Source: Blasia pusilla (Eukaryota). From it: DNA of 64,000 nucleotides. The position numbers and the translations under genes are program-made. The notes under the pieces were generated by a model. That model saw nothing but the letters and a program-made list of their open reading frames with translations. It ran no database searches and had not been told where the DNA came from. Numbering within the stretch: position 1 is the first letter of the stretch; every line of letters starts with the position of its first letter. The stretch is from contig CM114271.1 of assembly GCA_050084515.1 (NCBI GenBank), forward strand, positions 28,644,001 through 28,708,000. The letters run 5' to 3'. Shown in pieces: positions 7,140 through 29,292 of the stretch.

Positions 7140-7775
7140 TACGGATGCTCGTTGATCCCACCTTAAGAACTTAATAGTTGTCGTGCATACATACATCACT
7201 ATCAAAGAGTTGAAGGCAACTCAAGATGTCTTGAAGAATGTGATGAGAGATAGTTCTATTGTGATGATGGATCTTTCCGAATCTATTGTGGATATTCAAG
7301 AGAAGGCATCATTAGTAGCAACAACTTCCAATAGTTCCGGATTGCATGAGGTTGTTGAAACTTTGGAAGTGAGAATTAAATCTTACGTAGAAGTTACAAA
7401 GGTTGCCCATATCTCTTTCTTCCAAGAGCTAAAGATAGAAAAGTAAAAACAACCAATTTGCATGTAGGAAGAACGTGAGAATCTCCGGATCACCAAGAAT
7501 AGAAAATAAATAGGTAAATAATGTTGCCCCAAGTTCTTGGTTGATACACTTCACTTCATAATCCGAACTTGGCTCAAGCTTTTCGCATTGGGAAAAATGG
7601 TATACAACCTCACAATATTCTTGTTAAGTTTGTTGATCAAACTCAACACGATACCACTATGGCTAACAAGGCCATTCTAAAAAGAAGAAGGATATGGTTG
7701 GATCGCGATCTTACACCTCTACAGTTGATGTAGGGCGGAAGGAGCTTGCCAAGGTCAAAGAGGCTTAAGAAGCAT
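7140..7775 (+). mobile_element. LINE ORF1 fragment (coiled coil plus RRM-like region), decayed
   Basis: LAQAFRIGKNG...ILVKFVDQTQHD...IWLDRDLTPLQ; homologous to the minus-strand copy at 55904-56520, which sits next to endonuclease/RT sequence. Confidence 0.75.
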
Positions 7776-9153
7776 CTGGATCCCTCGCCTCCTTGGCCCA
7801 TGAACTGCCATCTCTAAATGAATGGAAATCTGGAGTTGGCCTTGATTCTTGCGATGGAATCCATTTCGGTCGTCTTTCCATCCAAAACTCGTATCTGACG
7901 CAGCAAATTCCGGAAGCATTCAGGATCAGCGAGAAATGCGAGATTTTCCCAGAGTTGTTTCTCCTCAACCGCCGTGATCTCGCCCTGTCCAGGGATTCCA
8001 AGCAATTGTTCACAAATTTGTGATGCCGTTGTGAGCTTGATCACTCCGGGCTTTGAACCCGGAGAGTTTCTGTAGACCTCGGCTACTTTCTTCGCCACAT
8101 CCTCCTTGATGTGTCTTTGAATTGCATCGTCACAGGATGAGTGTGGGAGCCAACATAGACAACCATCCTTGTATACTCTGACGTGGAGCCCAAGTCGTGG
8201 ACAATGAAAAATATGTATGCAGGACACGCTCCAACGCAGAAGGGCGATGCCTGACAATGAGGACATCGATGGCCTCCCGGCGGTATGGTGGCACCGACCT
8301 CGTATGGATTTTTTGCATTCTTGGGAGGGAATTACGACGTATTGACTCGCCCGTTGCGCTCTAGATACGGGCATGCTGGACTTCTACACTCCAAGGCTCC
8401 CACGCATTGGTGGCGGGAGACAATCCAAGGACCATCTCGAATTGAAGCACTGGTCCGTTGAAGAGTGCACCATTGATGACAATCGACTTTCGTCCCATAC
8501 CCTTCAGCGCCCTCCATCCTTATTTTGAGCAGGAGCAAAGCAAGTGGAGGCAACTCAAAAATGCAATTACCATAAATGCGTGGGCGGCTAAATGTCGACA
8601 AGAATGTGCTTGAACATTTTCAAGGCCAGAGACGAAAGCAAACTATTGCCTGATACTCGCAAGAGGAACGAGTAGGGGGACAGAGGGCCCGATTGGTGTC
8701 CGACAGATCCACTGAGGTTGATAACATCCGGAGTCTCTTCAGGAAAAACAACATTGTTACGAGCGTGCAAAGTTGGAGTCAAAGCCGGATCTGCAGAGCT
8801 TGGAGTTGCAAACGTAGAGCTTGGAGCACTAGGAAATTCTAGACGTCTACTTGTAAAACAGACGAATTCACGGGCAGGCCGTAAACTCTGTATTGACCAT
8901 TTGGTAGAGGTAGGAGATTCCATGCTTTACGGTCTGAGGTCACTGGCTGGACCGTCTGACCTATTATGTCTTCCGTACCGTCCACCCTAATATCTTTGGA
9001 TACAAAGATGGTTCCAATTTGAAGAAGAAATCGAACAGACAGAAAATTTTCATCCATTGCTATGAAAGACTCACGAGCTTGGGGTCGAATGATTTCCGAT
9101 TGAGGAAGGGCCGCCAGATGACTGCCACAAGTGAGCTTAACATAATTATCCAT
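7775..9153 (-). pseudogene. N-terminal half of a probable MULE-type transposase with a Cys/His-rich (GCM/CxC-like) domain; frameshifted, cut off by a LINE at about 7775
   Basis: Joined frames give GNCIFELPP...DCHQWCTLQRTSAS...CVGALECRSPACPYLERNGRVN...C..C...H...KVAEVYRNSPGSKP...SRFPFIQRWQFMGQG. The DDE core is not present in the window. Confidence 0.5.
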
Positions 9154-9415
9154 TCCAAGAAGATTCCAACGGGAGGAGATTGAGAATGAGAATATTTAAT
9201 TTCTAGTGAATAGGAAACAGATACTCCTGACAAATTTTTACTGACAAGATGAATTCGGTGGGTGACATTGTCTGACACAATGGATCCAATTCTGAAACAC
9301 ATTCAATTTTGTTGCAATATGTTACCGGATTTGGGAAGCAGAGGGTTGTGCATCACACTTGGAACCTGTCAGGAGTCCTGGCAACTCAAAAATTCCCCGA
9401 AGCTAACCGAAGCCT

Positions 9416-10078
9416 GCAACCCGTCAGCATCGGACGGGTTGCACGCTTATGCTAAACATTGTCGAAGCGAGCAACCCGTCCCTCTCCGACGAGTTGCTCG
9501 GATACCGCTCCTTCTTGCCCAAAGATGCCGGAGGCGTGCAAACCGTCTGTTCCCGACGAGTTCCGCGGGTGCCTCGCCTTTTAGCCCAAAGACGGCGAGG
9601 CGTGCAACCCGTCGCCCTCCAACGGGTTGCGCAAGGGCCTCGCCTTGTGGTGCAGCCAGCCAGACTCCGACGACTTGCACGGGAAGCCCTCGTCCTTAAC
9701 CCTTGATGAGGGAAGCGTGCAACCCAAAGGTCTCCGACGGATTGCCCAAGATTCGTCCCGTTCCCATCCCAAACACGGCGGAGGCGCGCAACATGTCGGT
9801 CTCCAACGGGTTGCGCGGGTACCTCGCGTTCTTTTCCGAAGACGACAGAGGCGCTCAACCCGTCGAAGACCGACGGGTTGCTCGCGCACGTGGCGACGTA
9901 CCCAGGATGGTGGAGGCGCGCAACATGTCGGTCTCCGACGGGTTGCGCGGGTACCTCGCGTTCTTTTCCGAAGACGACGAAGGCGCACAACCCGTCGGTC
10001 TCCGACGGGTTGCTCGCGCACGTGGCGACGTACCCAGGATGGCGGAGCCGCGCAACCTGTCGGGCTCCGACGGGTTGC
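9416..10078. repeat. Array of about 10 copies of the palindrome GCAACCCGTCGGnnnCCGACGGGTTGC at roughly 65-bp period, between the two divergent genes
   Basis: Copies visible near 9416, 9471, 9538, 9604, 9719, 9788, 9856, 9920, 9987 and 10052; includes a roughly 131-bp two-unit tandem duplication. Confidence 0.92.
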
Positions 10079-11671
10079 CATTTTTCACGTCCGGACTTCC
10101 GTAACATCCAGCACGTCGCCATCGAAAGGACGACGGGACCCAACGGTCAGCCCAACGGCTAGAACGTATAAACAGGGCAGAAATCGCTCATTTTCGGTTT
10201 CTCATTTTGCGATCTTCATTCCTCACTCTCCCGCGCAGCAGTTGATCAGATACGATGGGGCATTTCACACGGCCACACATCGCCAGTCGATAGGAGGGAA
10301 CGAGAGCGAGACCGTTTGACGCAACGACAACGAGACGGTTCGACCGAGCGATCGTGGGACGATTCGAGCTACCCATCAAGGCGATTCGAGCTCCCATCTC
10401 GACATCAGCAAGGCGACTGATCAAGGGATTTGTCGTGGACATAGGTGGAGGCATTTCCGGAAAAAATGACAAGGAAAAAATCACAAGCCAACAAGTTTAG
10501 GAGCTTCACTCCGAAGTCCATTAGGACTCCTGCGTCAGCTTCTCCTGGGCCTCGTTCGGCGAATGAAATTAGGTAGCAGGAAATCGAGGAGCGGGAAAGG
10601 GAAGCGGAGCTGCATAACCAAGTGCTTCTTGCGAGACGTGTTCAAGAGGCGCTAGATAAACAGAACGCACAGGCTGAGACGTCGCAGGCCTTGAAGAAAA
10701 GGATCGCCGGATTTAAAAGAGAGAAAGAAGCGCTGGGACGATCGGTGAGGAGGGCAGCATTGGCTAAAGCGAGGAGGGAAAAAGCGATAGCCATTGACGA
10801 TAGCCAAGCCCGTCCAACCGCAAGTGTTGAGATGCGGGAAATGTCCCCCACAAAGTCCGGGGACACAATCAACATAGTGGAAACGCCAGAAGTTGAAATC
10901 GATGACGACGAGGTATGAGGACCGCCTACGAGGAGATGGTGGACATGGCCGAAGAAGCCGGAGAGCGGTCATTCTCGACTCCAAGCCCGGCGGAGGACAT
11001 CGACCTCTATCGGATCGACGAGTTCGCAGTCGATTTGCCAGCTTCTGTCTAAGACAAGTTAGCTGGTCAAGAAACCGACCCCATTTTCGAGCGGGTAAGA
11101 GAGGTTCTGGGTTTTTTGAATTATGTGAATTGCAATTCATTGGGATTTCAGTGTAGCTTATTCCTCTTGTCCCGGTTCTGACAGGTGGTAAAGCAGATGG
11201 CACTCATGGAGGGCCACAACGCCCGAGGATTCCATCATGCGGATTGCGGACAATGGAATACGTCCGCAAATTTCATCCGCGAGGACATCGTGAAGCTAAA
11301 ACAATCGGCGGCGGCAAAGATCTCACGCCGACAACTTTCCTCCCTTCTATGTTTAGCCTTACGACGAGCATGGAACCCAAGCTGGTTACTGAGGAGGACT
11401 TGGAAAAGCTCGACACATTCTCGGAGGATGCGAGACCAGGACTTGAAGGCAAGTTGAGGGCACGGAATTCAGTTGGATGAGGAATGCATTTCTTCATCCG
11501 GGATGGAAATCACGAGTTCATGGCGTGGACCAAGTTTGCGGAGGAGCGGCCCAACTCATTGGAGGCACATTTCTGCGTGAAGGCAGTGGTCCTTCACCCA
11601 TACCCTCATCACATGGCGACGGTGGAGATGGCAATGCATGCCATGAACACGTGAGTATCTTTAACACTTTT

Positions 11672-12392
11672 GCAACTCGTCGGACTCCGACGAGTTGCTC
11701 GATTGATGAATGGGTTAGGTTTGTTTTTGCCGAAAGCAACTCGTCTGACTCCAACGGGTTGCTCGACTGCACGCTTTTTCGGATGTTTTTTTAAGATTGC
11801 AACTCGTCAGACTCCGACGAGTTGCTCGATTGATGAATGGGTTAGGTTTGTTTTTGCCGAAAGCAACTCGTCGGACTCCGACGGGTTGCTCGACTGCACG
11901 CTTTTTCGGATGTTTTTTTAAGATTGCAACTCGTCGGACTCCGACGACTTGTTTGATTGAACATAGATTTAACTAGTTTTTGGCCCAAAGCAAACCGTCG
12001 GAGTCCGACGGGTTGCTCGACACGCCGCCTTGTCAGGATGTTTTTTGAAGCTGTTTTTCCCCAAATCAACCCGTCGGAGTCCGACGGGTTGATTTCGCCC
12101 AAAAATAGTTTCGAGGCAAGCAACCCGTCGGACTTCGACGGGTTGCTTTGGGGAAAAAACCTTCTAAACCTGCAGTCACTCGAGCAACTCGTTGGAGTCC
12201 GACGAGTTGCATTCTTCAAAAAACATCCTCACAAGGCGGCCTATCGAGCAACCCGTTGGACTCCGACGGTTTGCTTACCAGGCATTAGCAAATCTAAATG
12301 CAATCCGTCGGACTCCAACGGGTTGCATCATTTAGCTCGTTGCTAGAATTCAACCTTGAGCTGTGACGACTCGTCGGAGTCCGACGGGTTGC
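11672..12392. repeat. Intronic array of about 12 palindrome copies (about 55-75 bp period)
   Basis: For example caacccgtcggagtccgacgggttg at about 12067 and gcaacccgtcggacttcgacgggttgc at about 12120. Lies inside intron 11651-12436 and includes a roughly 127-bp tandem duplication. Confidence 0.92.
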
Positions 12393-14538
12393 AAGAACCC
12401 ATGTAATTTCCTGACAGTTTGAGTTTGGATGTGCAGGATTGTATCGGAGGGGAAGGTCACCCACCACTGGATCCAGGACTGCGATCGGGTGAGGAAGGTG
12501 CTTACGACGTACGCGAGAGAGTACAGGGGGTTCTTGGGCGATGCCCTTGTCAATCAGATGCTTGCAAAGGGTGTTCAGATTAAGAAGAAAACTTGGGCAA
12601 ACAAGTTTATTTCTCAAGATGCAGCCGTAACCATCCTTTGCTGGTCGAAGATATAGGCCGTGAAGAAAAGCGTTGCACTGGAGCTGGAGCGGAGGGAGAA
12701 GGTATCTGCGTCTGAGCGCGCCAAATTCATCCAAGCTGCAGCACATGCTGCAACGAAATACACGGCGAGCAAGATGCAGCGATACATCAGCATTCTAAAC
12801 CCCGAACTTGGTCCGGAGTTCTACAAGGAGCTCAAGGCGATTATCAAGCGCCCGTGAAGAGGGATGAAGATCCGCATGGTCGGATTGGGAGAAAGTGTCA
12901 TTTGGATCGCGTGCATCGGTTTGCGTTGTCCGGGATAAGCGAGTTCAGGAGGATACGATCGATGAAAATCGATCTCGAGGGCTCAGAGGCCTAGAAGAGG
13001 GCGGCACACCATCCTCCGGTGTGTCCGATCCAGTGATCTCGCATTGGCTACGCCGAATGGTCGTTCCGGGACGCGCGTTGCGGGTAATCGGAAGTCCATC
13101 TTTGGACGATGCGCAAGCGAGCTCGAAGATTAGAGCCCATTCGCCGAAGCAAACCTTGAAAGTTCGGAGATCTCGAGGTTTGGTTCTACGACATCCGGAC
13201 AAGCCAACGAAAAACCAGGATTCAAGACCATGTTCAAGGTTTGCGTCCTCCCTCGGTGAGCTTGACGAAGAAGTAGAGGGGAACAAACGGGATCAAGCGA
13301 AGAAGAAGCGAGATCTACAGGAGCAGACGGCCGATTTTGTTTGACTAAAAGCTGCCCAACGGATGGTCTTCAGGTTCCTCATCCAGTGTAAGAACGCAGG
13401 TACGTGGGGAAAATTACCGGTAGCCTTGAAATTTTGGGCTTCGCCGCCGGATGCAAAGACATTCTCCATGTACGACGTGGAGATGGGGCAGCACATGTCC
13501 GATTGGGAGGTGGAGAATTGCCCCATTTGGCTCGACTTCAACGACCCTGAAGACATCACGGATAAGGACTTACGAGTGCTTCGTGATGCAGTGGCCTCAG
13601 GACAAGACGACATCCCCAATTTTGTCCTGCCTGAAGACTTCTTCGGAGGAGATGCAGTAGAGCAGGCCCACGAGACAGCTAAGTTGGCTTCCAAGGTCCG
13701 CACAGCCAAAGAAAAATCCACAGCGGGTCTCAAAGGCAAGGCGAGGGGAGGGAAAAATTCAGAGGCTGAGTCTTCCCAAAGAGAGGCTGAAGATTCAGGG
13801 CTAGAGGCGGAATCGTCCGGACGAGCGGGGAGAGAGGGTCGGACCAGGTCCTCGGCAAAAAAAACGCCACCAGAATTTGAGGTCATAGAAACCCCGACAA
13901 GCCGTCCCCAGGCTAGGGAGAAGTGGAAGCGAGAGGTGCCCGGGTTGTCCCAAGGAGTATACAGCCCATCATCCTTGGGAAGACACAGACAAACAACGAC
14001 CCGGACAAGCGTTCTCCTTCAGTTCACTCCTTTACTGGATGAGTGAAGGGCTTCAGTTCTCAAGCGTCGACACCAGCCATCAAAAAATTGACAACGCTGG
14101 AACGAAAGCTCCAACGAAACGGGCACGCTGCCTAGACGGTGAATGGAGTGGTCGAAGAGGTTGCGGTGGATCTCTTGATCACCGATCTGCCCTCGGGGTT
14201 GCGACTTTGGGGCGAGAATCCGTCGGACGAGGTACCTGAGTGGAATGTGCCACTCTCTTATGACCAGATTGCACTTTTGTTCTCCTTTGCAGACGCCTAT
14301 CTGAGTGACACGGGCTGGTTCTTGGTGTTGTCTGGAGGGAGCGAGGACGAGCTCTTCAACCTCCAGTGCGTCAAGAGGTCGCTAAAGTGGAGGACGACAC
14401 AATCGTGGATCATAACAAATGAGTACCCACTCCGATCCGCGACGAGTCAGATTCGGGTAAGGCTCAATTCCTGTTCTATAATTTCAATTATATTTTAATG
14501 ATGTGTATAATGAGAGTCAATCTGGGTTTTTTTCAGGA

Positions 14539-14837
14539 GCAACCCGTCGGAAGGCGGACGGGTTTCTTTAGAGAAGCCCATGCTCGGGTGAGAGCAACCC
14601 GTCGGTTTCGGCGGGTTGCATCTTTCCACATACAGGAAAACGCGGTGTACCTGCAACCCGTCGGAACCCGACGGGTTGCTGTTGCTTTTGGTTTTTCCCA
14701 GTTGATTTTGGTTTTTGGATGCAACCCGTTTGATAGCGACGGGTTGCTCTCACGCGAGCATGGGCTGCTCTAGGCCAGCAACCCGTCGCCTTCCGACGGG
14801 TTGCTCACGGAAAAAAACAACGGAGCCCGACGGGTTG
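14539..14837. repeat. Intronic array of 5-6 palindrome copies splitting the MTase-like domain
   Basis: Copies near 14539, 14594, 14653, 14721 and 14778, downstream of the GT donor at 14457. Confidence 0.9.
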
Positions 14838-16319
14838 ATCCAAAGTCTGTTATTGAAAATTTTCTCAAGGCGACTTCTTTAGTTTCTGACATTGTTTCCA
14901 ACGTCTTTGATTTGAGATGGACCGTCCCACGCTCATCGCTTCGGTTCGCCGAGCATAATTTCCAGGTGTTCAAGATCCAGGATCCTGTGGATCCATGCTC
15001 AGATGGGTATAGCTTAGATAGTTTGTACAATTCCCCCCCAAGAATTTACATGCAAGACAGTACCCCACTTCTGGGAGGAAGGGAAAAGTCGCCAGCCTTG
15101 ATGCAAACGCTCATCGAGCTCTGCTCAAGCCCGAGTGACTTGGTGTTCGACTTAGTGGGACATTCAGGGGCAAGTATCAAAGGCGCATGGCAGAGTGGCA
15201 AGAACATTCTCTGCTTCGAGTGAAGGCAGGAACTGTTTGACCTTTGCAAGGAGGCAAAGGCAGAATACGAAAGGCTTGTTGGGGCGTACAACTCTCCACC
15301 GGCCGAGCTCGGTTCAGAGCCACCCTTGGTAGTGACTCCATCGTCACTTCCAACGATTCCCAAAATCGGGAGGGCAAGGCCGAAAGTGATTTTGCAAGAG
15401 CTCTCCAACGATGATGAGTGAGTTCAAAGAACTCAACGACCCAGCTTGACTACAGCGTTTGGAGTAGGGAGTTTTTTTATAATGAGGCAAAAGATTTCAT
15501 AGAATAGATCAAATGTACAGTTCCAAGCTTTTTTCGGATGATATAAAGCAGAAGATTTTTTCGATCGATGGTGGTGCTTGTAAATGTTTGCTGATCATTT
15601 TTTGTCTTTTCGAATGTGATCGTCTCCACGGACTTCTATTTTGCAACCCGTCAAATTTCTCCTGCTTGCAACTTTCACTTTATGACCACTGCAACCCGTC
15701 GGATTTCTCCTCATTGCAACTTTTCGCTTTTTTACCACCTCCAGGCAACCTGTCTGATTCTGACAGGTTGCCTGATCGGACCCTTTCCCTGTTGGTCCAA
15801 CTTAAGAGGCAGTCTGGCGGGCTTCTTCCCTTGGCACCTTCCCCTCAACTTGTAGAGGCAGGCGTAGGCTTCTTTTCTTCTCTTAGACGTGTTGGATTCC
15901 TTCTACCTGTGCGGTTGCCATAATGGTATTACCGGGGATGGAGCAGATATTGATTGTCACATCTGAGTAGCCGATAGGCCGAGATCTATCGTGGATAGGG
16001 CGTAGGAGCCAACGGACTATCTTGAGTGTAACTTTGTCCCACAGTGTCGGATGAGGTTGAGGATAGGTCCATTGTGTCAGGACCGTCGTTTTTAACGACT
16101 TTGATGTTGAGGTCTTTTTGGTAGGGTGACTTGTTGACAGGTCACTGCCCTTGGTAACTGTCTTGCCTTGAGTTACCAAGGGAAGGGCTATTTTTAGGAG
16201 AAGAGCCTTTTGGCTCTTCCCAACCTATATAAGAGAGGCTTTATATGCCGATGTAGATTGAGGAGTGGAGTTTTAGGCCGGGTGTGCCGTTTTTACTACT
16301 CTTTATTTTTACATGAGAA

Positions 16320-19300
16320 AGATGTCAGGGGGCTAGTGGGAATTCGTTGTTTGCAGGTAGGCAAGCGAGTTGCCTCGGTTGGGGAGCCCCTGGAGACGTG
16401 TGTGTGACATTTTTGTGTCATTTTTCTGTTCGGAAGGCCGTGGGCGGAAGCGCTGTCCGTTTTTCTCAGATTTCGTTGGTGCGGATTGTTGGGGGACAGC
16501 AGCCGAGTGTAGCGTATGGTGGGCGTCAGGTGTACGCAAGTGGAGGCGTCGAGAGAGAAGGAACGGGCAGGTTTGGGTCTTGCAGCCTCCGGGGGGCTGT
16601 CAAGTAAAGGCGGCTAGAGTTAGGTCGAAGTTTAGGGTTCGGGGCGCGGACGGGCAGGGCGCGGACAGCAGGCTGGGCGGACGGCAGGGCGCGTGACATG
16701 TGCCCCCCACCCCACCATTTAGGGCCCAAGGGGCCCGCATAGGGCCGCGGTCCAAGTCTTCCCCCCCCTTTTTCCAACGTGGTAAGAGTGGATGCACTCA
16801 TAGCAAACGTGGTAGGACGGACGAGGTCGGTCCGTAACGCAAAGGCGCATGGCAACGTGAGGGCGAGGAGGATGTCGACGTCTTTGAGTGATCGACAAGT
16901 TGACAGCGGGCGTGACATGATGTTTTAGAGGTGCGCATAGGGCGTTGCGAGAGTTTACGCTGGAGAGGCAGTGTGCATGATGCCGACGGGTTGTCCGCAT
17001 CTGTTGACGGGAGGATCGACGTGTTGGTCGAGGGGAGTGTTATGTGGCGGAGATTGTCATATCATGTGGAGGAGTGCATATTGATGGTGCAAAGAGTTGA
17101 GGGCGTGATCAGGTTACCCATTCGAGTCCCTTTTCCCGCACTTTTTGTGTATCATTGAGAGTGTTGGGTATCGGGTAGTAGCTGGTGCTAGATGGGTGCA
17201 GTGATGGTGACGAGTGTAGATTCTTTTCATGTGTAGCATGTTGGTGGATATACGGCGGTTGCCGAGTAGGGGTCGCGTGTATGACCCGAGAGTGTGTCGC
17301 TAGGTTAGGTGAGTCAGTTGGGAGGCTCATGGTGAGCCCGAGTGTTGAGCGTGCGTGAGGCCGGGTATGTCATCACGGGATTGACGTTAGCATAGGTGAG
17401 CTAGTGAGGCGTGTGGGAGACTCTCGGTGAGTCTGAGTGCTTGAGCGGCCGAGAGCAGGGTTTGTCATCACGGCGTTCTTCCAGGGTTCGGAAGAACGGG
17501 GTAGTGCGAGCAGTGGTAGTGGTGTGACACGGAGTGGAGTGAGATACCGAGGGGTTACCAGTGAGGAGCCCCGCGACATCCATCCGTGATTGGATCGTCA
17601 TCACTGGACACTGGGTCTGGTGACGAGATCACCGATAGAGACAATAGTACTTGGCATGAGATGGACGACATGGGCCATCGGGGCATGCGTCGTTTCTCGG
17701 GTGCAGTGGGCACCATCGACTTAGATGATTTCATCCAGGAGTTCGACACATGGTGCGACTTCCAGGAGATACGGACCCCGACACGGTTCAACCCTTTCAT
17801 GGCATGGAAGGGGTTGTTCCAACACTTGGAGGGTCGTCCAATGGATGACTACATGGAGTTCCGATCACTATATTCAGTAGAGATCGATGCCTGGAGGATG
17901 TATTGGGCTCCAGGGTATGTGTCCACTAGTGGTCGCGAGGCATATGATGGGATTGTGAGAGAGAGAGACCCACACCATCGGCCCGGAGACTAGATGGAGA
18001 GGAGGGCAAAGTGACACAAGGCGATGTGGGAGAGACGGTGGTAGAGGGCCCACCGGCTTCAGCCCCACGGTGGAGTTCTTCCGGCGGTTGGGGAAGAGCT
18101 ACTGTAGGCGTACCCATTGACAAGTCAAGAGTCTATACGATTTTCAGCGACGATCGGGTGAGAGTGCGAGAGAGGCATTCACACGCATGAGGAGGCTGAT
18201 CATTGCTACGTTTGGAGGACCGAGGTGCGGTCCCGATTGGTCTGAGGTTATGGACCGAGAACTACGGAGGAGAGTCCGAGATGCGGTCTTTGATTCACAA
18301 CGAAGCCCACATTGAAGGTGGTCTTTGAGTTGTGAGCGTATTGAGCTCAACATGAGTGAGGAGTAGGTAGTGACCGCTGGATTTTCTCGAGAGTCGACGG
18401 GTCCACGAGCGGCGGTGACCCCACCGGTGCAGAGCGAGCACCGAGTACCACGGAGCGGGCGGGCAGTGTGCCTAGAGAGCGGGGCGGGTACCGTGAGCCT
18501 ATGAGGCAACGACCCGCACCTACATATGTTGCCCAGCCAGGACCGATGTGGTCTTGTTGGGCGTGTGGGGGGCCCATAGGCGAGAGGCGCCCACAACATG
18601 GGAGAGGACCACGGCGCCTCGATTGCGCAGACCCAGAGGATGGCTCCACGAGCACCGGTGTGACCATTGCCACAAATATGGTCACACTAGGGATACATGT
18701 TTTGACCTTTCGCGAGGGGCACGCGTCGAGAGGTAGGCCGAGGGCCTGGGGCGGTCGCCCTAGAGGAGGTCGGGAGTTCTTCTTGGGCGTGGTGGTAGAG
18801 GACCACCACCAGCCGGAGAGGAGATGGAGCAGAGCACAGAGCGGCGCTTCTCTCACGCATCGATCGGTTGGAGCGGAGAGGATTGCCGCCATGACGATGA
18901 TGCGGCTTAGGAAAAGGCACGGAGCTGCGGCGGCTAGTGTGACTCGTCTCTACCTCTTACCCCGACCGGGTGAGGATCTCTTCAATATGGGATTCATGTG
19001 TAGTGCGGCCCAGGTTGAGGCACTGCGATGGTGACTTCGGGGGTGCTGCGAGAGGCACCGAGCCATCGAGAGGTGGAGTTGAGATTGACCCACCGAGGGG
19101 ACCGATGGGCGGCGAGCCAGGGTTCCACGATCGTTCACATTGTCGGAGGCACTACACACACCATCGATGGTGCCTCGTTGACCAGCGCGCCTCTGATTCG
19201 AGGCACCTACGTCGGCGTCACGAGGAGTTGGAGTGACAACTCCTATGCGGCTCGAGTGGAGTCGATTGTCGACTATAGTGTTGGAGGTGGCCACTAGAGT

Positions 19301-22300
19301 GAGTCGACTCGCTATTTTCCGCCTTAGAGTTGGCGGCGTTGGGAGTTGGACCAAAAGCGAGGTGTTCCGGTTGGCCGCCACGTTGTGTGAGCGTGGAGAG
19401 ATGAGCGCTTCTTGCTCGAGGTAGTTGAGGAGGTGGTGGACTTTCCTCGAGCCGGTGCTGGGGCGTTCCCCACGAGTCATGGCATCTTGGCGGCGGGCGC
19501 GGTTGGTAGATATGCCACTCGACCGCCATAGAGCGAGCGATGGTGACACTTGGAGTAGTGTTCTTGGATAACCGAGGAGTATTTCGCTTTGTTAGTCCGA
19601 CGGGACAGTATACCACCGCGCAGCGCGCCCTACTTGATTCGGGAGCGCAACCCTTGATGTTAGGAAGCGGCGTGTTTAGCGTTGGGGTTACGGAAGGCCG
19701 ACATTGAGCCTTGTCCCTTCCAGATCTGAGACCTCGATTGGGCGTATCACCCACTCGATATATGACTCGACAGAGATTGTTGTGAGAGTCCAGCCGAGCA
19801 TGCGGCGGATAGTGCTATGGTGCGACGCGTGCGATTACGACACCGGTGGTAAATGCGATGTGTTGGTGGGGAGTGCGATGTTATATCCCCTAGATTCATC
19901 TTGACTTCTCGGGAGGAGACCGTTGCTTATCGGCCAGGATGGCGGTCGGTGACGGTCGGATGAGTCGATTACCCGTGTAGTTTGCGGGACGAGATGGTCG
20001 ATCACGAGGCGAGATGCGGTGACCACGTTGGTGGCTTTCACGAGTAGTAGTGTTGGCGGCCAGAGAGTTGTTGGAGGGGAACGCACATGCGGAGGATGTC
20101 CCGAAGAGCGGATAGTCCCACGGAGAGACAGGCCATGGCGGGTGTCTCTTCCCATGTTAGCGATGCCTCTTCACCATTATGGGGTACGACGCGAGAGCTA
20201 CAGAGGAGTGCCAACGACCTCGTGAGGCAGGCGTGGAGTCATGTTTTAATCCCAGAGCAGCGAGAGTCACGTGGCAATCGGGCTCTTGGAGTGGAGACGA
20301 TGACCCCACTAGATACCACACGTGTTGTGGGGGAGTGCCCAGAGGAGGGTGTTAGGGTGTTAGATCTCTTTGGAGGGATTAGCATCGGATTGGCTGCAGC
20401 ATTGCAAGCGGGCATACGGGTGCATCAGTACCTTTATGTGGAGAGAGATGAGACCGCGCGGCGAGTATCATTACGTCACCTGGCGAGATTGGTCCAGAGG
20501 TATTCTGAGTTGTTGTCGGTATCTGCAGTACGGGGATACCAGCATACGCTACCCGTCGACATATCTTTGGTGGGGGCGCACGATCTGGATAGAGTTGGCA
20601 CCATTCATTTGGTGATTGCTGGATGGCCATATCAGGGTCATTCATCAGCTGGCCGAGGATTTGGATTGCAGGATCCGAGGTCAGGGATGTTTTGGAAGAT
20701 GCTGCGAGTAGTACGACACTTGCAGCAGAGTCAGATATGTTCTCCAGCATATATTTTGGAGAACGTGCCGTTGTTGGGAGATACTCGTGCACGTGTGATG
20801 ACGAGTGTACATCAAGTGAGGTTCTGGTTGGGACCGGCTGTGTTGTTAGATGCAGCGAGAGTTGGGTCACGTGCCCATCATCCACGACTGTGGTGGACGA
20901 ACCTAATACCATCAGAGGTACTGAGTCGAGCCTAGAGTGGAGTCCAGAGAGCACCACATCTCACGGTGGATGCTATTTTGGACTCAGGGCGTTAATCTCA
21001 GGTGGTGACACACGATGATAGACCACCGTTGGCCACGGCCAATGGGGTGGGGGAGTTGAGGGCAGCCTTACCTACGTTGGTGAGCTTCCCAGCATCCCAT
21101 GCCTTTCGTCAGGGAGGGCCAGGCATGATTTGGGATGAGGTGACCAGAGTATTGGAGGAGCCTACAACAATGAGCGCGAGCGTGCCATGGGGTTCACAAC
21201 CAGTACTACGGCGGTGCCAGGGATGACTGAGGCATCACGGAGACAGGTGTTGGGGCAGGCGATGGACCTCAACTGTCTCACATGGATAGTCAGCCTAGGT
21301 ATGGGTGGCGAGAGGCGGACGGATGCGAGTGTCATCCATGCCGTCACGCCCACGAAGTTGGACCACCGCCCTACGTGGTGCAATACGAGGCATTGGTGGG
21401 GGCGAGACGAGGAGAGATAGGCACCCATGGACTTCCTGGGACGTCGTTCGAGCAGAGAGTGCGAAGGCGGCTAGAGTAGCACATGTTCATTTTTCGGATG
21501 TGGAGCATGGTGTAGGAGGTCAGAGTGGAGTGGCTGTTGCGGAGGTGGCTAGGGTTGCTACATAGCAACCAAAGCCGGAGATTGCGTCCTCTTCGGTGAG
21601 GTCACGATGGAGACTTGGGAGCCTGTGATACGTCTCAAGTTGATAGGAGGAGAGCGACGGCGAGTTCATAGGTTTCTGATAGGTAGAGGCTATTGCGCAG
21701 ATTCCACGCCCTATAGATGTGAGTCGAGTCCGAGCATTTCTTGGACTGGCGAACTTCTATCGACGGTATGTCAAGGGTTTTAGTGCGATCGCAAAGTCTT
21801 TGACCTTGTTGACAAGACTTGATCAGGTGTGGTTGTGGGGAGATGATCAGGAGCGAGCATTTCAGGAGCTCAAGGACATGTTGACGTCCTCACCCATTTT
21901 ACAGAGACCGATTAGGGGTCGTCCATTCCAGTTACATACGGATTGGAGCATGTTGGGTCTAGGAGCAGTGCTTACTGAGAGGGATGACGAGGAGAGGGAG
22001 TTCGTTGTGGCTTACGCGAGTCGATCGAACAACATTGCAGAGGCTAAGTACAGGTCCTACGCAGGAGAGTGCTTGGCTGCAGTGTGGGCCGTGGCACATT
22101 TTAGGTGCTATTTATTTGGCAACCCTTTCACACTTATCACTGATCATCAGCCGTTGAAGTGGTTGATGGAGTCCGACAAGCTTACGGGAAAGATTTCCAG
22201 GTAGGCTCTATTACTACAGGAGTATGAGTTTGAGGTGGTTCATAGGCCAGGTCGGCTGAACCAGGATGCGGATGGGTTGAGTCGTAACCCATGTCCGAGT

Positions 22301-23960
22301 TAGAGAGACGTCACGGGAGCTCGATGGCACGGAGAGAGTGATGAGGAGATGGTGCCCGGTTGGCATGCATCTGCCTATCTTTGTTGGTTGACTATGGCAG
22401 GTCAGCCACAGGTGATGACTCCAGTGGTGGGATTGGATGATGAGTCCTTGGATGCGGAGGTTAGTGAGGAGGCGACAAGTGGTCGTGATATCCATGACGA
22501 CGTGGAGGTTGTGGACTTCTTGCGCACAGGCGTCATTGCGAGTACAGTGAGTGCTAGGGAGCGGGATCGGATCCTACAGAGAACCAAGAGGTTCAGGTGG
22601 GAGGGGACTCACATTTTGCGGGTATGGGGAGATGGTAGGATACGAGTGGTACCTCATCCTTCCCAGCGAGCACGTGTAGTGCGACATGCCCATGAGGAGT
22701 TGGAACATTTTGGAGTAAAGCGTACTTACAGCTTACTCCAGGTTCAGTATTGGTGGTGCGGCATGCATACTGGGGTACAACAGTTTGTGGCCTAAAGTAT
22801 GGTATGTGACAGAGTGCGAGCATCCTTCAATGCTCCCACTCCGCAGTTACATCCTTTGCCAATTATGGGTTTAGGTTATCAGTGGAGTTTAGACTTTGCG
22901 GGACCTTTGCCATTGACAGGGCGTCATCATAGGTACGTGTTAGTCATGGTGGAGCATTTCTCCAAGTGGATAGAGTTGGTGGCACTACCAGACAAGGCGA
23001 GCGAGGGAACAGCTTATGCGTTTCTAGATTGTGTGCTTAGTCACTTTGGTGCACCGGCGGAGGTGTTGCCCGACGGTACCGAGTTTGGGGGAGAGCTTCA
23101 GGCCTTGTGTGATCAGGCGCTGATAGATCACCGCACCACGTCCAGGAATCATCCTGAGGCGGATGGATTGGCAGAGAGAGTGGTACAGACGGTGAAGAGA
23201 GGATTGCGCAAGTATGGCTTGCAACGGGGACAGTTGAGGGAGTGGGACCTACAGTTGGCATGGTTGGCTATGGGTTATTGCTTTAGTCGGCAAGCATCCT
23301 TGGCGTCATTTTCACCGTACTTTTTGCTCTTCGGGAGAGAGCTAGATTTACCTGCAGCGATTCGACGTGACATGGCGGAGGTGTTAGATCTTGATGATCT
23401 AGATGTGTGGGTGCAAGCATGTTCTCAGAGGGCGAAGTTTTTCGTAGAGTTATGCCTATGGCCTTTGAGAACTTAGCTATTGCCCAGCATAGAGATACAT
23501 TGAGGTACGCGACCATTAGTGGAGGAGGTTATCGTCCAGGGATTAGGAGGTTTCATCCTGGAGATTACGTGTATTTACAGCAGGCGGCACCCACGACGTT
23601 AGATGTCACTACAGGGGGCACGATCCTACGTGTGCGTGAGGTATTACCGACCGGAGTCCTCATGTTGGAGGGACGAGATGGTATGGTTTGGAAGGATCAT
23701 GTGCGCAATTGTGCGCCATGTCATCTTCCGAACGTAGATGGGACGGTGGATCCGAGCTTGGCTGTGGTACCTGCAGGCTTGAGGTGTATGTTGTGCGGAT
23801 CTGCGAGGGATGCAACCACCATGTTGGTATGTGATCATGTATATGTATGAGTTTATTTTTGTACATGTTTGGATCGACCCGTGTGTGGGGAAGATCGGTG
23901 TTGTGTGGTGTAGATGTGACGAGCAATGTATGTTGTGTAGCGATATGTATGCGCACGACA
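16320..23960 (+). mobile_element. Ty3/gypsy LTR retrotransposon G1: gag - protease - C5 DNA methyltransferase - (RT deleted) - RNase H - integrase - partial PHD - LTR 3' end
   Basis: gag from about 17620 (DLDDFIQEFDTWCD), CCHC knuckle CDHCHKYGHTRDTC at about 18660, protease ALLDSGAQPLMLG at 19627-19665, RNase H LHTDWSMLGLGAVL, integrase WSLDFAGPLP...DGLAER; ends in atgcgcacgaca at 23960 like the other LTRs. The left boundary is approximate. Confidence 0.9.
20345..21300 (+). pseudogene. C5-cytosine DNA methyltransferase domain embedded in gypsy pol (copy G1)
   Basis: Motif I VRVLDLFGGI, II LYVERD, IV IAGWPYQGHS (canonical PCQ), VI YILENV, VIII AHHPRLWWTN, IX-X ERAMGF...RRQVLGQAMD; in-frame stop at 20933. 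Confidence 0.9.
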
Positions 23961-25220
23961 TGATACTGGATGGGTGTCACATTGCGGAGCGTACAAGGTA
24001 TACTGCCGAGGAAGGCGGTGGGACTCGAGACAGGTTACATGGGACCGTTATGGTGTACCTAGTGGGGGCCAAGGCTCTCGAATTCGCCAACATTTTCGAT
24101 CCCCGTCTACAATCGGCCAAAGGAGCCACTTGAATCCCAGGACATTCCTTTGGTACCGTCACCGAGGAGAGTTAGGAGTAAATTTGTAGATGACGAGGCT
24201 GAAGAAATCATAGACTAGGTGAAATGTATATTTCCGAGGTTCCTTCGGAGGTAATAAAGGACGAGATTTTTTCAACCCATAATGGTGTTTGTAAAAGTTT
24301 GCTGGAATATGTTTTTGGACTTGTGGATTGTGTTCTTTTAGCTACTCAAAATTACAATTTCGCAACCCGTATGATTCGACTTTTGCTTTTTGCTTTGCTA
24401 CTTTTAACCATTTCCACGCAACTGCCGGATTCGGCAGGTTGACTCGCTTGAGTGATCGGACTCTATCGGTGAGACCAACTTCTGGCGCATTGTGGCGGGC
24501 TTCTTGACTTTTGGCTCGTTCCCCTTCATTCGTCCAACCAGTTGTAGGCTTCTTTTCTTGTCTAAGATGTGCAGGATTCCTACTACATGTCGGATAGCCA
24601 TTTCGGATTCCCAACCCGTTAGATCGTCGTGGGTGCAGGGTGGAAGAAAATCACTTCTAAAAATCTTTCCTTTCTTATGGTGAGCTTTCTTACGGGTTGG
24701 GAGGGGTGCAGCTTCTCGGTTTCTCAACCTAAGGATCTGATTTGTTCACATTTGAGAAAGTTTGTCTTGAGCAGACACCATTCATAACCGACAGAAAGTA
24801 GGTTATAGGGCAATTTAGGGGAGGCCATGATGCAGGCAACAATCCCTGCAAAAAGAGAGGTACCCATCCAGGTGGTCCTCCAACAAAAATACCAAGGGCA
24901 CTGCTTTTTGTTGACCGAGACAGGGAATGTTAAGAAACTTAGGCTCACATGGAGAGTGATGGAAAAATGTTTAGGGTGGTCTTATGATGTCTCCTTTTTT
25001 CTCGCCCCCAGGAAAGAGGAGGTTTTTTAGGGCCAAATGTGGACCAGTAAATACTCTCTTCTTAAGATTTCCTGAATTTCAAAGCAAACAAAAATTTCAA
25101 ATATGTCAAAAAGTTTTGAAGAGAGGAGGCGGATTTGGCCTTTTTTTTTTTAAGAGAGACTCTCCTCTCTTCCTCTCTTCCTCTCCTCTCTTACTCTCTC
25201 TTGTCAGAATACCAGCCCCC
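23961..25220 (+). mobile_element. DNA transposon copy C: terminal about 1.26 kb of the palindrome-bearing element
   Basis: Aligns by eye with 47300-48939 (with an internal difference) and ends in a CT-rich tract plus GAATACCAGCCCCC. Confidence 0.85.
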
Positions 25221-28200
25221 ATCCTCAGCTTGGGAGTGGCTGAGTAGCGTCGTATGAGATCGCGACAGATCACAGCGGTTGCGTTGGTGAGCCCCATGCC
25301 TACCGAGACGGTGGAGGCAGTGGCGGGGGGCGAGACCCGAGGAGATCTACGCACCAGGGGAGATCGGAAGAGACACCCTTGGACTTCTTAGGATGTTTTG
25401 AAGGTACGCAAGGAGATGATAGCCACAGCATCGAGCGTGGTTTTGGGCACTGCACGTGGAGGAGAGTTTGCAGTTGGCTATAGGAGAGCGGCCGAGTGTT
25501 GTTGTTCGAGAGGGTTGCACCATAGCAACCACCGATACCCGCGCCGGAGAGTCCTACCGTAGTCACGATGGAGACTTGGGAGCCAGATATGGGCCCTAAG
25601 TTGACAGGAGGAGAGCGGCGCCGAAAACATCAGTTCCTCAGGAGTTATAGGAGTTGCTTTGCGTTTAGCATGGAGGATTTGGGTACGTTGTAGGGACCGG
25701 GGATCCGCATTGAGTTGTCGAGTGATATGCCGATCTTTGAGCGACCCCTACAGTCTGATGATTTGGAGAGGGCTCTGATTCAGAGTAGGAGCCAGGACTT
25801 GGTCAAAGGAGGACTAGTGGAGATGTCGCATGGGGAGTATGCATCTGCCACTGTCATGCCCGCCAAGAAGGATGTGCATGGCAACTGGATGGATAGGCGG
25901 ATGTGTGGGGATTACCGACCTATCAATCGGCAGACGAAGTCCGATAGGTATGCCATGCCCACCCCTAAGGAGATCTTTGATGCGATTGGTCACGCAAAGG
26001 TCTTCAGTTCATTGGATTTGCGAGCCGAAGACCATCAACTGCCTATCAGATTGGAGGACAGGCAGAAGACGGCATTTTGGGGCATCGATCCTCACGGGAA
26101 GGATTGTTTGTACCAGTGGCGGTTCTTACCATTTGGTTTAAAGAATGCCCCGGCTGAGTTTCAGAGGGTCATGGATAGGATCTTGGCTGGTCTGGATTTT
26201 GCTAGGTGTTATATTGATGACATCGTAGTCTTTAGCGCCACGGTTGAGGAGCATGAGCAACATCTAGAGGAGGTGTTTCGACGATTGCAATTACAAGGGC
26301 TGAAGCTACATCCAGACAAGTGCAAGTTCTTCTACGACCAGATTGAGTACTTGGGTCATACGATATACCCAGGGGGCCTTGGTGTTCAGCAGATGAAGGT
26401 AGAGGCTATCTCACGCATTCCACGCCCTACAGATGGTGGCTTACGCTAGCCGCTCGAACAACGTTGTAGAGGCGAAGTACAGCTCGTATGAGGGTGAGTG
26501 CTTGGCTGCGGTGTGGGCTGTCGCGCATTTCAGGTGTTACTTATTCGGCAACCCCTTTACCATCATCACTGATCATCAACCACTGAAGTGGTTGATGGAG
26601 TCCGACAAGCTTACAGGGAAGCTTGCGAGATGGGCTCTGTTGTTGCAGGAGTATGATTTTTAGGTGGTACATAGACCTGGGATGCTCAACCAGAATGCAG
26701 ATGGGTTGAGTCGTAACCCATGCCCAAGTTAGCGAGATGCGGCTGGAGCTCGATGGCATGGAGAGAGTGATGCGGAGTTGGTGCCAGGATGGCACGCGTC
26801 AGCCTATTTAGGCATGTTGGCTATGGAGAGCCAGAGTGTGGAGACTTCGATGGCGAGGTCTAGTGGAGAGTCCTTGGATCCCGAGGCCAGTGAGGACACG
26901 ACAAGTGGCCCAGATATTCATGATGATGGAGTAGTCTTAGAGTACCTTCATCTTGGCGACCTTGCGAGCACCATGGATGCTAGAGAGCGGATCGGATCCT
27001 ACAAATGGGCGAGCGGTTCCGTTGGGAGGGGACACATGTTTTGAGGGTTTGGGAGGATGGCAGAGTACGCGTAGTGCCGTATCCTTCGCAGAGAGCACGA
27101 CTAGTGCAGCATGCCCACGAGGAGTTGGGTCACTTTGGGGTGAAGCGGACGTATAGCTTGCTCCAAATTCAATATTGGTGGCGAGGCATGCAGACTGACG
27201 TTCATCACTTTGTTGCCAGGTGCATGGTGTGTGATCGGGTCCGAGCATCGTTCAATGCTCCGACTCCACAGTTGCATCCATTACCGATCATGGGCTTAGG
27301 GTATAGATGGAGTTTGGATTTTGCACGACCTTTGCCCTTGACAGAGCGTCACAGTCGTTATGTGTTGGTGATGGTCGAGCACTTCTCGAAGTGGATCGAG
27401 TTGGTTGCATTGCCTGACAAAGCGAGTGAGGGAGTAGCTGATGCCTTCCTTGACAGAGTGTTGAGTCATTATGGCGCACCGGATGAGGTGTTGACAGACC
27501 AGGGTACCGAGTTTTGCGGTGAGTTCCACGCCTTGTGTGATTAGGCATTGATCAACCACCGCACGACTTCGCGAGATCATCCTAAGGCGGATGGATTAGG
27601 GGAGAGAGTTGTGCAGAAGGTGAAGAGGGGTTTACGCAAGTATGGCTTGCAGAGAGGTCACCTAGGAGATTGGGACCTCCAGTTGCCATGGTTGGCGATG
27701 GGATATAGATTCAGCAGGCAGGCATCCTTAGCGTCTTGTTCACCGTACTTGCTACTTTATGGCGAGAGCCGATTTACCTGCGGCCATTCGTCGAGATCTT
27801 TGGTGAGGTGTCTTTGAACCTTGATGACCGGATGTATGGGTGCGAGCATGTTCTCAGTGAGTTATTTCGAGAGTGATGCCCATGGCGTTCGAGAACTTGG
27901 CGATTGCACAACATCGGGATACGTTGAGGTATCGACTATTCGAGGTGGTGGTTATCGACCAACTATCCGGAGGTTTCATCAGGAGATTATGTCTACTTGC
28001 GTGACGGCAACGGCGGCGTTGGATGTGCTGCAGGCGCACTATCCACGAGTGCGTGACATTTTGCCAACGGGTGTTCTCTTCTTTGGAGGGACGCGCGATG
28101 GTATGGTATGGAAGGACCATGTGCGTAATTGTGCGCCATATCACCTTCCTAACATTGATGGTACGGTAGATCCGAGTTTAGCGATAGTTCAAAGGCTTGC

Positions 28201-29292
28201 GTTGTATGTTGTGTGGTTCGCCCGTAGTGCGCCACGATGCTAGTCTGTGATGGGTGTTCGAGAGGATGGCATATGGCATGTTTGGCGCCACCTCTCACTA
28301 GGGTTCCTCAGGGGCGATGGATGTGTCCCAGATGTACATAGAGAAGGTAGTTCTACATTCTGACTTGTGTCTGTGACATGGATGACAAGGAGGCGACTAA
28401 CGATGGGGCCACATGAGCACCCGGCCTTCTTGCTCTTAGCGTCCGAGAGATGTATGTCATGGTAGGTAGGGATAGATGGCTATCTGGAGTTAGAGGGACC
28501 TAACCACCAACTAGGGGGGCGATTGGAGATATTTTGGTACTTCTTGTCTCGTTGTTTGGATGCCATGAGTTAGCATGGGATCATGCGTGTTTGTGTGTGT
28601 GTGTTCGGTGACAGCGATGTATGTTGTGTAGCGATGTGTATGCGCACGACAACTGTCACGTCTTTTAGGATAGATCGGTGAGATCTAATAGAGCGCCTTC
28701 ATAAGTATTGGAGGACATGCCCAGTAGGTCGAGGGTGACCTGTTGAGGCCCTTGGAAACCTGAGATAGCAGGTTTCCCCTTCGCTTCGGCTCATTTGGAG
28801 CCATATTGAGGAACTTACTATTTTAGGTAAGTACCATTTTGAGTATATGGTCGACTTACTATTTTTGGTAAGTGGCCCTTGACCTCCTACATCAGGTCAA
28901 GAGCCAAGGAGGTGACTTGGGAGAATGGGTTACCATGGAGAGAGCTTGGGAGAGGGGAGGGGTATACCTCAAGGAGAGAGAGCTTGAGAGCTCATTCTCT
29001 CTTTGTTGAACCTCTTGGCATGAGGCGGCAGAGCTATGGTACCTTGCCTTATGAGTGTAACCCAAGCCTCTCATTAGGAGAGTGGGTTTGGTTTGACATG
29101 AGAGAGAGTGCACACCTTTTAGAACTATGGTGTGAGATGGTGGAGAGAGAGATTGGATCTTACTTTATTGGAGATATTTTGGTACTTCTTGTCTCGTTGT
29201 TTGGATGCCATGAGTTAGCATGGGATCATGCATGTTTGTGTGTGTCCGGTGACAATGATGTATGTTGTGTAGGGATGTGTATGCGCACGACA
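25221..29292 (+). mobile_element. Ty3/gypsy G2: starts just after the MTase; RT, partial RNase H, integrase, PHD, PPT, 3' LTR
   Basis: RT 25715-26430 (RMCGDYRPIN, LPFGLKNAP, CYIDDIVVFS); integrase 27100-27800; PHD about 28190-28340; PPT AGGGGGGC at 28513-28520. Confidence 0.92.
28654..29292 (+). repeat. LTR (about 640 bp, TGTC...GACA)
   Basis: Begins TGTCACG and ends GCACGACA; homologous to 30930-31571. Confidence 0.85.

Follow-up and report, generated by a model that had tools for sequence, protein, structure and literature searches.

Amino-methyltransferases of the PF01555 type are rare in eukaryotes, and the two eukaryotic cases that have been studied, rotifer N4CMT and Marchantia DN4MT1, changed views on N4-methylcytosine (4mC). 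Here, we analyze a stretch of 64,000 nucleotides from Blasia pusilla (contig CM114271.1, positions 28,644,001 to 28,708,000; hereafter the window, in whose own coordinates all positions are given), which holds two decayed copies, A and B, of a multi-copy, spliced gene whose C-terminal part resembles the beta-class amino-methyltransferases (MTases). With moderate confidence, we favor the reading that the ancestral gene encoded a selected, non-catalytic accessory protein with a beta-class MTase fold, binding nucleic acid or a partner, of a mobile and retroelement-linked repeat.

The closest described systems are the PF01555 beta-class MTases M.MboIIA, CcrM, M1.HpyAVI/DpnA, M.RsrI and M.PvuII. 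They share the fold predicted for P0011, a relative of the present domain (Z 12.5–14.3 over ~170–187 residues), and the motif order, IV first and then X-I-II; the lysine-proline, the D...G and the E of the part that binds S-adenosylmethionine (AdoMet) can be aligned. Unlike these enzymes, the present domain has a deviant motif IV and a degenerate F-x-G-x-G, scores below the gathering score of the PF01555 profile, and is fused to an N-terminal region of ~570 amino acids (aa) in a eukaryotic, intron-bearing, high-copy gene. The domain descends from PF01555-type enzymes, and since the gathering score, motif IV and motif I all fail, we regard it as a divergent variant and not as a regular member of the family. 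A functional analogy is offered by METTL14 and the MT-A70 pseudo-enzymes, which combine an MTase fold and a degenerate tetrapeptide with a selected non-catalytic role; METTL14 reads EPPL and acts as a scaffold, working alongside METTL3. Unlike METTL14, the present protein belongs to another family (MT-A70 proteins reach Z 7.1–9.7).

Among eukaryotic proteins, N4CMT of Adineta vaga (PDB IDs: 8s9m, 8s9n, 8s9o) is likewise a PF01555-type domain encoded by a gene with spliceosomal introns. According to the available part of its description, it is the product of a single-copy host gene, has a catalytic SPPY needed for activity and carries a C-terminal chromodomain (PMC8885841), whereas the present gene is multi-copy and decayed, has no SPPY, and no chromodomain was detected in it. 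MpDN4MT1a/b of Marchantia polymorpha are likewise prokaryote-type amino-MTase relatives in a bryophyte, a pair of host genes arranged in tandem and responsible for 4mC in sperm, as far as the available text goes (bioRxiv 10.1101/2021.02.12.428880); set against them by description, the present family lacks the canonical catalytic motif. The surroundings of the gene recall KnitGypsy-Dnmt3 of Klebsormidium nitens, where a DNA methyltransferase (DNMT) lies in a Gypsy pol, as the C5-DNMT domain of the neighboring elements lies upstream of reverse transcriptase (RT), RNase H and integrase. The repeats of KnitGypsy-Dnmt3 are DIRS-like in the accessible text of that paper (PMC5890265), and a repeat of the window found beside pol in both orientations, which we call U, recalls them. 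The same text places the C5-DNMT within pol and describes no amino-MTase-like gene (PMC5890265); the present gene differs in being separate, spliced and of another MTase class, and its nearest named relatives come from a moss.

The sequence-only reading had noticed two peptides in copy A and their recurrence in copy B, and the translations of the open reading frames (ORFs) together with blastn bear this out. VDLLITDLPSG is encoded at 14166-14198, within the open frame 14136-14498, and EKSPALMQTLIELCSSPSDLVFDLVGHSGASIKGAWQSGKNILCFE (EKSPALMQ...NILCFE) at 15083-15220, within the frame 14774-15223; the counterparts in copy B, 32 kb away, are VDLLILDLPSA and EKSPALM*TLIELCSRPGDLVFDLVGLLGASIRGTWHNGRNILCFE. 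Copy B aligns with copy A over 44026-46075 (73.7% DNA identity) and 46734-47271 (79.7%), and the homology resumes upstream, where 11516-11697 and 43110-43301 are 76.6% identical with mostly synonymous changes. The gene has three exons, both peptides sit in the last two, and copy A extends over 11520-15421 in total. The permuted order of the beta class is found here, with the motif-IV exon (14136-14456) preceding the motif X/I/II stretch (15083-15220). The parts of the two copies are as follows.

11520-11650, plus strand: exon 1 of copy A, 131 nt, open, with the ATG start and the donor CAC/GTGAGT; the ATG of copy B is at 43114
11651-12436, plus strand: intron 1 of copy A (GT..AG), with a tandem array of ~27-nt palindromes of period 63-64 or 127 nt; hairpin matches at 11673-12391
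12437-14456, plus strand: exon 2 of copy A, an N-terminal region of no recognized fold and the first half of the MTase-like domain
14136-14456, plus strand: MTase-like half 1 (beta4-alphaD-beta5-alphaE-beta6), with D-L-P-S, the motif IV equivalent, at 14184-14195
14457-14916, plus strand: intron 2 of copy A (GTAAGG..GAG), with the same palindromes inside (14540-14837)
14917-15421, plus strand: exon 3 of copy A, MTase-like half 2 with motifs X, I and II at 15083-15220, an acidic tail and the stop at 15419
43114-47217, plus strand: copy B gene, with exon 1 at 43114-43244, intron 1 at 43245-44043, exon 2 at 44044-46071, intron 2 at 46072-46697 and exon 3 at 46698-47217

Three runs of raw RNA-seq reads and a DNA run, all from one organism, were mapped to 12400-15500 at a likeness of at least 88%. 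The RNA runs gave 53, 92 and 72 reads, 88-99% alike to copy A, so that the reads derive from related copies. In most of them the first mate maps to the minus strand, as it does for plus-strand RNA in most stranded libraries. Before 12437, three X20 RNA reads have loose ends whose consensus equals 11621-11650 exactly; therefore 11651-12436 is an intron. Two X20 RNA reads connect 14456 to 14949 with 34 letters between, which correspond to 14917-14948; therefore intron 2 spans 14457-14916. The junction is in frame in the transcribed relatives (34+2 letters), and the 14917-14948 stretch of copy A is 2 nt shorter. RNA depth is zero over 14480-14895, which is no proof of splicing since introns of diverged copies might not map, and depth and loose ends continue past the gene into its 3' flank. 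Related copies are transcribed and spliced at GT..AG introns. The intron noticed in the sequence-only reading is thus real, with two corrections to the extent of the gene: the acceptor lies at 14916/14917 and not at 14965, and the gene reaches upstream to the ATG at 11520. An acceptor AG at 14965, as suggested by the ORFs, was rejected: it would remove the EHNFQVF stretch that is conserved in relatives, and the RNA joint reads place the acceptor at 14916/14917. With the acceptor at 14915-14916, exon 3 therefore retains this stretch. The GT donor of exon 1 is intact in both copies (11651 in A, 43245 in B); copy B keeps the acceptor context of intron 2 (46696-46697), and the AG of its intron 1 acceptor is changed to AC.

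Both copies are pseudogenes. Copy A has in-frame stops at 12654, 12855, 13342, 14044, 14133 and 15221 and at least two frameshifts in exon 2; copy B has eight (44483, 44957, 45431, 45503, 46755, 46895, 47036 and 47078) and at least two frameshifts. The TGA at 15221 directly follows CFE, after which the same frame continues to 15421. Copy B reads GGA at the matching codon, and 15221 is G in 3/3, 8/8 and 12 of 13 reads of the three RNA runs; since nearly all RNA reads carry G, the expressed relatives are without this stop. The ancestral product had ~880 aa, namely the ~570-aa N-terminal part, which has no recognizable family, and the C-terminal MTase-fold domain. The N-terminal ORFs match nothing in Pfam, and in a word-based search the read-through N-terminal part of copy B has no counterpart among proteins of 315-1005 aa. 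When the conserved 149 aa at the N-terminus of copy B are searched by language-model features, IQ-motif and hypothetical clusters score best (0.88-0.89), a lead at most. By blastp, the ~570 aa show weak, collinear similarity to the N-termini of proteins of the moss Ceratodon purpureus, which are introduced below.

Despite this decay, the protein was selected. Nei-Gojobori estimates from the single pair A versus B give dN/dS values of 0.11 for the first N-terminal segment, 0.29 for the middle, 0.16 for the motif-IV exon and 0.17 for the last exon, so the MTase exons (0.16-0.17) are far from the neutral value near 1. Purifying selection acted during the A/B divergence, and from the low dN/dS it follows that most of this divergence arose under protein-level constraint, before each copy died.

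The sequence-only reading had proposed an intron-split beta-class amino-MTase-like domain, and this identification stands, for a multi-copy repeat of a plant-like genome: motif IV precedes motifs X and I, a PF01555 match and a family of relatives were found, and RNA reads join the exons. The profile search against PF01555 came out in its favor in part, with a match to exon 3 (E 3.6e-4, 21.0 bits, profile positions 165-220 of 221) that is below the gathering score of 26.7, and with no match to the motif-IV exon. Against PDB sequences (phmmer, E<=10), exon 3 has four matches, all of them the beta-class MTases RsrI and DpnA/M1.HpyAVI (E 0.17-0.2), and among PHROGs it matches phrog_3008, "DNA methyltransferase" (8.8e-6); the NCBIfam scan gave weak rows only. 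In the language-model feature search, the 107-aa motif-IV exon alone finds PF01555 clusters in 24 of 30 matches (score 0.92); a word-based protein search with this exon among longer proteins found nothing. In blastp against six full-length relatives, the motif-IV exon matches P0020 at residues 480-569 (5.6e-9) and exon 3 matches P0007 at residues 585-646 (6.6e-13). The two matches are collinear; therefore both halves form one conserved domain in beta-class order.

These relatives come from an exhaustive HMMER search with a profile of the last exons of A and B among 1.84 billion representatives, which gave 13 proteins at E<=1e-3 (best 2.6e-5). Of the 12 matches retrieved, ten appear to belong to the family; the remaining two, P0008 and P0009, are repeat proteins and were taken as false positives, and P0005 looks like another one, judged from the result table only. 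P0007 (KAG0605740.1, 758 aa) is annotated in Ceratodon purpureus as a "hypothetical protein"; its paralogues P0014, P0019 and P0020 have locus tags on other chromosomes, i.e., four paralogues on four chromosomes, and a word-based search with P0007 residues 425-680 returned these three paralogues and nothing else. P0011/P0015 (596 aa, Logan contigs) have the whole domain in a single open frame, and the other members are assembly and metagenome ORFs. All seven relatives scanned match PF01555 at 13.6-26.5 bits, none of them at the cut-off. The domain belongs to a previously unannotated family. A limited literature search, covering main texts, found no description of such a family; literature combining retrotransposons and N6_N4_Mtase yielded nothing on plants, and the best matches of a broader search included no work on PF01555 or N6_N4_Mtase, which is a weak negative. 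The available part of a paper on giant-virus footprints names only an mRNA-capping methyltransferase (PMC4083422).

Two observations on the exon structure of the family stand beside this. The short family ORFs P0006, P0012, P0013 and P0010 start just before the "NF..(V/L)" stretch, where exon 3 of the window begins, a hint that other species share this intron position. In P0010, 30 extra residues stand between AST and GAS; they resemble a read-through intron, located at a different position.

For the fold, an AlphaFold2 model of P0011 was made from an 18-row alignment (A4). The predicted local distance difference test (pLDDT) is 42.7 on average, below 50 in the N-terminal 320 residues and 56-79 in block means across most of the domain. 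Foldseek of this model against PDB gives 162 matches at E<=1e-3, and the top rows are all beta-class N6A/N4C MTases: CcrM first (3.5e-9), then M1.HpyAVI, MboIIA, M.BceJIV, RsrI, TTHA0409, A. vaga N4CMT and PvuII, with METTL3/14 after them. VIA-align, which is independent of Foldseek, places 11 beta-class or type III Mod MTases first among 48,161 chains (Z 11.5-14.3), with MboIIA at 14.3, N4CMT at 14.2, CcrM at 13.7 and unrelated folds at 5.7 or below; the matches cover model residues ~291-545. By the start offsets of four of these alignments, D328-L-P-E331 of P0011 presumably falls on the catalytic tetrapeptides of MboIIA, RsrI, PvuII and CcrM, provided that the residue numbers assumed for these enzymes hold. 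The window's own motif-IV exon, folded alone (alignment A6), is uninformative, with a mean pLDDT of 45 and no Foldseek match below E 2. The domain is thus predicted to adopt a class I MTase fold whose nearest solved structures are beta-class enzymes, the window being covered through its homology to P0011. Of the two outcomes that the sequence-only reading had named as speaking against it, a missing match to an MTase fold and a dN/dS near 1, neither came about, the fold match being that of the relative. A second proposal of the sequence-only reading, that the gene is a mobile relative or a reservoir of 4mC writers, is not supported: there is no SPPY, N4CMT ties structurally with the N6A enzymes, and its profile E is 0.74, against 0.027 for DpnA.

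One may ask here if the resemblance to MTases arose by chance, in ORFs that are mere junk within a decayed repeat. All profile matches are below curated thresholds and the half-domain model from the window is uninformative, as such a view would have it; yet two independent halves indicate one family in the right order, the family is conserved in another plant, the structural match of Z 14 has a clear gap to the background, and dN/dS is 0.16. We consider chance similarity extremely improbable.

The motifs of the domain make catalysis doubtful. The canonical forms of motif IV, as listed in the available part of the N4CMT paper, are DPPY, SPPY, NPPY and DPPW (PMC8885841). Copies A and B read DLPS, P0011/P0015 read DLPE and the four Ceratodon proteins read DAPE, so that the canonical (D/S/N)-P-P-(Y/F/W) occurs in neither the copies nor the relatives; the D and the P are invariant in eight of eight aligned sequences, which lack the second proline and the aromatic residue (alignments A3, A4 and A6). 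For motif I, copy A has D-L-V-G-H-S-G-A-S, copy B D-L-V-G-L-L-G-A-S and the relatives D-x-x-A-S/N-T-G-A-S/A, which gives the family pattern D-x-x-[A/G]-x-[S/T/L]-G-A-[S/A]. Where DpnA has F-M-G-S-G (in D-P-F-M-G-S-G-T-T) and RsrI F-A-G-S-G, we find V-G-H-S-G (A), V-G-L-L-G (B) and L/S-A-S/N-T-G (relatives) instead of F-x-G-x-G. The acidic residue of motif II at the end of beta2 is kept, with CFE in A and B and ALE in the relatives aligned to GIE of DpnA. Because the deviant motifs IV and I are common to every relative found, they are a family trait and not decay, which strengthens the earlier suggestion that the domain may be catalytically altered or serve for binding.

The domain could still be an active amino-methyltransferase that works with an unorthodox D-[L/A]-P-[S/E] loop and puts N6-methyladenine (6mA) or 4mC on the DNA of the element or on host chromatin, or modifies RNA or protein. 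Such an enzyme would account for the beta-class fold, the invariant D and P of motif IV, the retained lysine-proline of motif X, aspartate and last glycine of motif I and glutamate of motif II, and the purifying selection on the domain; a C5-DNMT is also present in neighboring elements that belong to this repeat set, for which the available text of the KnitGypsy-Dnmt3 paper gives a precedent of methylases borne by transposable elements (PMC5890265). It is at odds with a motif IV that has neither aromatic residue nor second proline, and with the H, L, S or N that stands in place of the first glycine in GxG. We know of no active enzyme with such a motif IV loop. In N4CMT, changing SPPY to APPA, i.e., the S and the Y to A, abolishes activity, according to the accessible part of the report (PMC8885841). 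We regard an active enzyme as unlikely.

The gene family is high-copy. On a 3.1-kb stretch, 14,075 contig pieces from the one DNA run map, with the caution from the tool that mapping depth is not copy number, and single variant sites are each overlapped by 17-73 distinct contigs. The repeats and elements that surround the two copies are the following; repeat U measures 1.3-1.6 kb.

15454-15921, plus strand: 3' flank of copy A (T2), homologous to the inner part of repeat U, 65% to 24168-24601 and 62-69% to 47511-47955
47299-48939, plus strand: repeat U, directly after copy B
23961-25220, plus strand: repeat U
62939-64000, minus strand: repeat U
9417-10077, 11673-12391, 14540-14837, 43277-43998, 46112-46609, 47720-48101 and 63764-63899: clusters of the palindrome core CAACCCGTCGG
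20051-23850, plus strand: decayed Ty3/gypsy-like element downstream of copy A, with C5-DNMT domain, RNase H and integrase
58246-59061, plus strand: second C5-DNMT, 55% identical to the 20051-20932 copy over 274 aa

Sequence homologous to U thus lies directly 3' of both copies A and B. The ends of U are sharp (TGATACTGG... and ...CCAG(C/T)CCCC), and U borders the pol genes of Ty3/gypsy-like elements in which a C5-DNMT domain precedes RT, RNase H and integrase. The DNMT at 20051-20932 matches PF00145 (8.7e-7, 29.1 bits, cut-off 22), and PF17919, PF17917, PF17921 and PF00665 match in the same element. The core CAACCCGTCGG has 72 matches at no more than one mismatch, against 0.75 expected; its clusters are located upstream of the gene, in both introns of A and B, and in U. 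The palindromes form perfect hairpins of ~27 nt, which are repeated in tandem with a period of 63-67 or 127-132 nt. Rfam finds no family in 9000-16500.

Two further features of U are noted. An ORF ends within its first ~260 nt, and the acidic tail of this ORF (...VDDEAEEIID*) is similar to that of the MTase-like gene (...SNDDE*). U adjoins pol in both orientations, and the element ending at 62438 has a 165-nt direct copy of the inner end of U (62456-62619) before the inverted U; this copy and the inverted U are a DIRS-like internal complementary arrangement.

With these repeats in view, the gene could be taken as a non-mobile host multigene family that spread by segmental duplication, happens to lie in a retrotransposon-rich region and received its U/T2 flank by recurrent insertion or gene conversion. 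It has spliceosomal introns, its own ATG and stop, and no transposase, RT or integrase inside the conserved A/B unit; the relatives in Ceratodon are annotated as ordinary genes, and copies A and B are oriented differently with respect to the nearest pol. Dozens of sequence-distinct copies in one DNA run with very high summed depth, two decayed copies within 64 kb, the same 3' flank, homologous to a retroelement repeat, retained by two old copies (dS ~1), and a palindrome motif common to introns and U are hard to bring together with such a history, and we hold it to be rather unlikely.

The palindromes invite yet another placement of the gene, as cargo or an accessory gene of a separate DNA transposon with palindrome arrays as subterminal repeats and the gypsy-like elements nested in. 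Arrays of this kind resemble the subterminal repeats of CACTA- or hAT-type elements; here they are dense, made of short palindromes, and present upstream of, inside and downstream of the gene. Both genomic copies retain their introns, which such a transposon would explain. Yet the ORFs scanned around A and B include no transposase domain, no terminal inverted repeats bounding the unit were found, and the same palindromes lie inside the repeat U of the retroelements. This arrangement seems to us improbable.

We therefore return to the selected, non-catalytic accessory protein. The ancestral gene would have encoded an accessory protein of a mobile repeat, whose C-terminal beta-class fold may have given up canonical catalysis, i.e., the transfer of methyl to amino groups. 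The domain would have been kept for binding nucleic acid, perhaps a flipped base or the palindromes of the element, or a partner, perhaps with AdoMet, in analogy to METTL14. The protein would serve a mobile repeat that is probably tied in evolution to the surrounding DNMT-carrying Ty3/gypsy-like elements, because repeat U/T2 and the CAACCCGTCGG palindromes are common to both.

As a working hypothesis on the structure of the whole element, the gene and U may form long inverted terminal repeats at both ends, and of the four U-pol junctions that the window contains, three agree with this model. One version of it has an element with two methylase modules, the C5-DNMT in pol and an active, spliced D-x-P-E/S amino-MTase in the long inverted terminal parts, writing a 6mA, 4mC or RNA mark on the element or on host chromatin. 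We consider this version quite unlikely; if true, land plants would possess a mobile source of non-canonical DNA marks.

Several points weigh against the non-catalytic, retroelement-linked protein that we favor. The loss of activity is a conclusion from the motifs. Motif IV keeps its D and P, motif X its K-x-P, motif I its D and last G, and motif II its E; therefore AdoMet binding or even unorthodox catalysis may still occur. The gathering score of PF01555 is reached by none of eight sequences (best 26.5 against 26.7 bits), and the part of the domain covered by sequence profiles is limited to its last 55-100 residues. For the motif-IV exon there is no match in Pfam or among PDB sequences and no meaningful match in NCBIfam or PHROGs; its feature search overlaps in 147 of 256 features only, a range where chance matches occur, and its placement in PF01555 is therefore a lead. 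The modeled relative P0011, with its low mean pLDDT, is only 33-39% identical to the exons of the window. Splicing is read from two and three reads, all from other copies, and dS between A and B is 0.8-1.2, near saturation, for the one pair compared.

The link to the retroelements has its own weak places. Copy A stands head-to-tail before a gypsy-like element and copy B tail-to-tail with one, and with such differing orientations at least one adjacency may be incidental. The word transposon, used in the sequence-only reading, is plausible given the high copy number, the decayed copies and the link to a retroelement repeat, but the unit could not be given termini, target-site duplications or a mobility enzyme: a search for bounding repeats found none, the homology between A and B ends with the coding parts, and neither 11516-15921 nor 43110-48046 contains a mobility enzyme, the RT, RNase H, integrase and DNMT being in the adjacent U-sharing elements. 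Between 15922 and 17600, similarity to U is no better than in shuffles, except for a 26-nt stretch, and no tRNA-iMet primer-binding-site motif was found.

The rest of the window holds further repeats and one probable host gene. A 550-bp repeat (7224-7775, plus strand, and 55972-56528, minus strand; 80% identity) lies ~4.3 kb upstream of copy A and, inverted, ~1.7 kb upstream of the second DNMT element, and may belong to the outer ends of such elements. The segments 27523-29292 and 29785-31571 are a 1.8-kb direct duplication of 85% identity, which takes in the integrase end of another gypsy-like element together with ORFs downstream of it. The pol of this element begins abruptly at 25222, immediately behind the end of U. 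The 312-aa open frame at 38166-39101 (minus strand) matches LCAT (PF02450, 6.9e-41) and is probably an exon of a host gene between repeats.

The family would be the third, and an unannotated, eukaryotic lineage of the PF01555-type fold, multi-copy, spliced, under purifying selection and adjoining retroelements with C5-DNMT. If the domain is inactive, it would show cleanly how a writer can give rise to a reader or scaffold, as a pseudo-methyltransferase associated with a transposon; if it is active, its catalytic loop would be new, and plants would have a mobile source of 6mA or 4mC. Ceratodon is genetically tractable, and its proteins allow either outcome to be tested.

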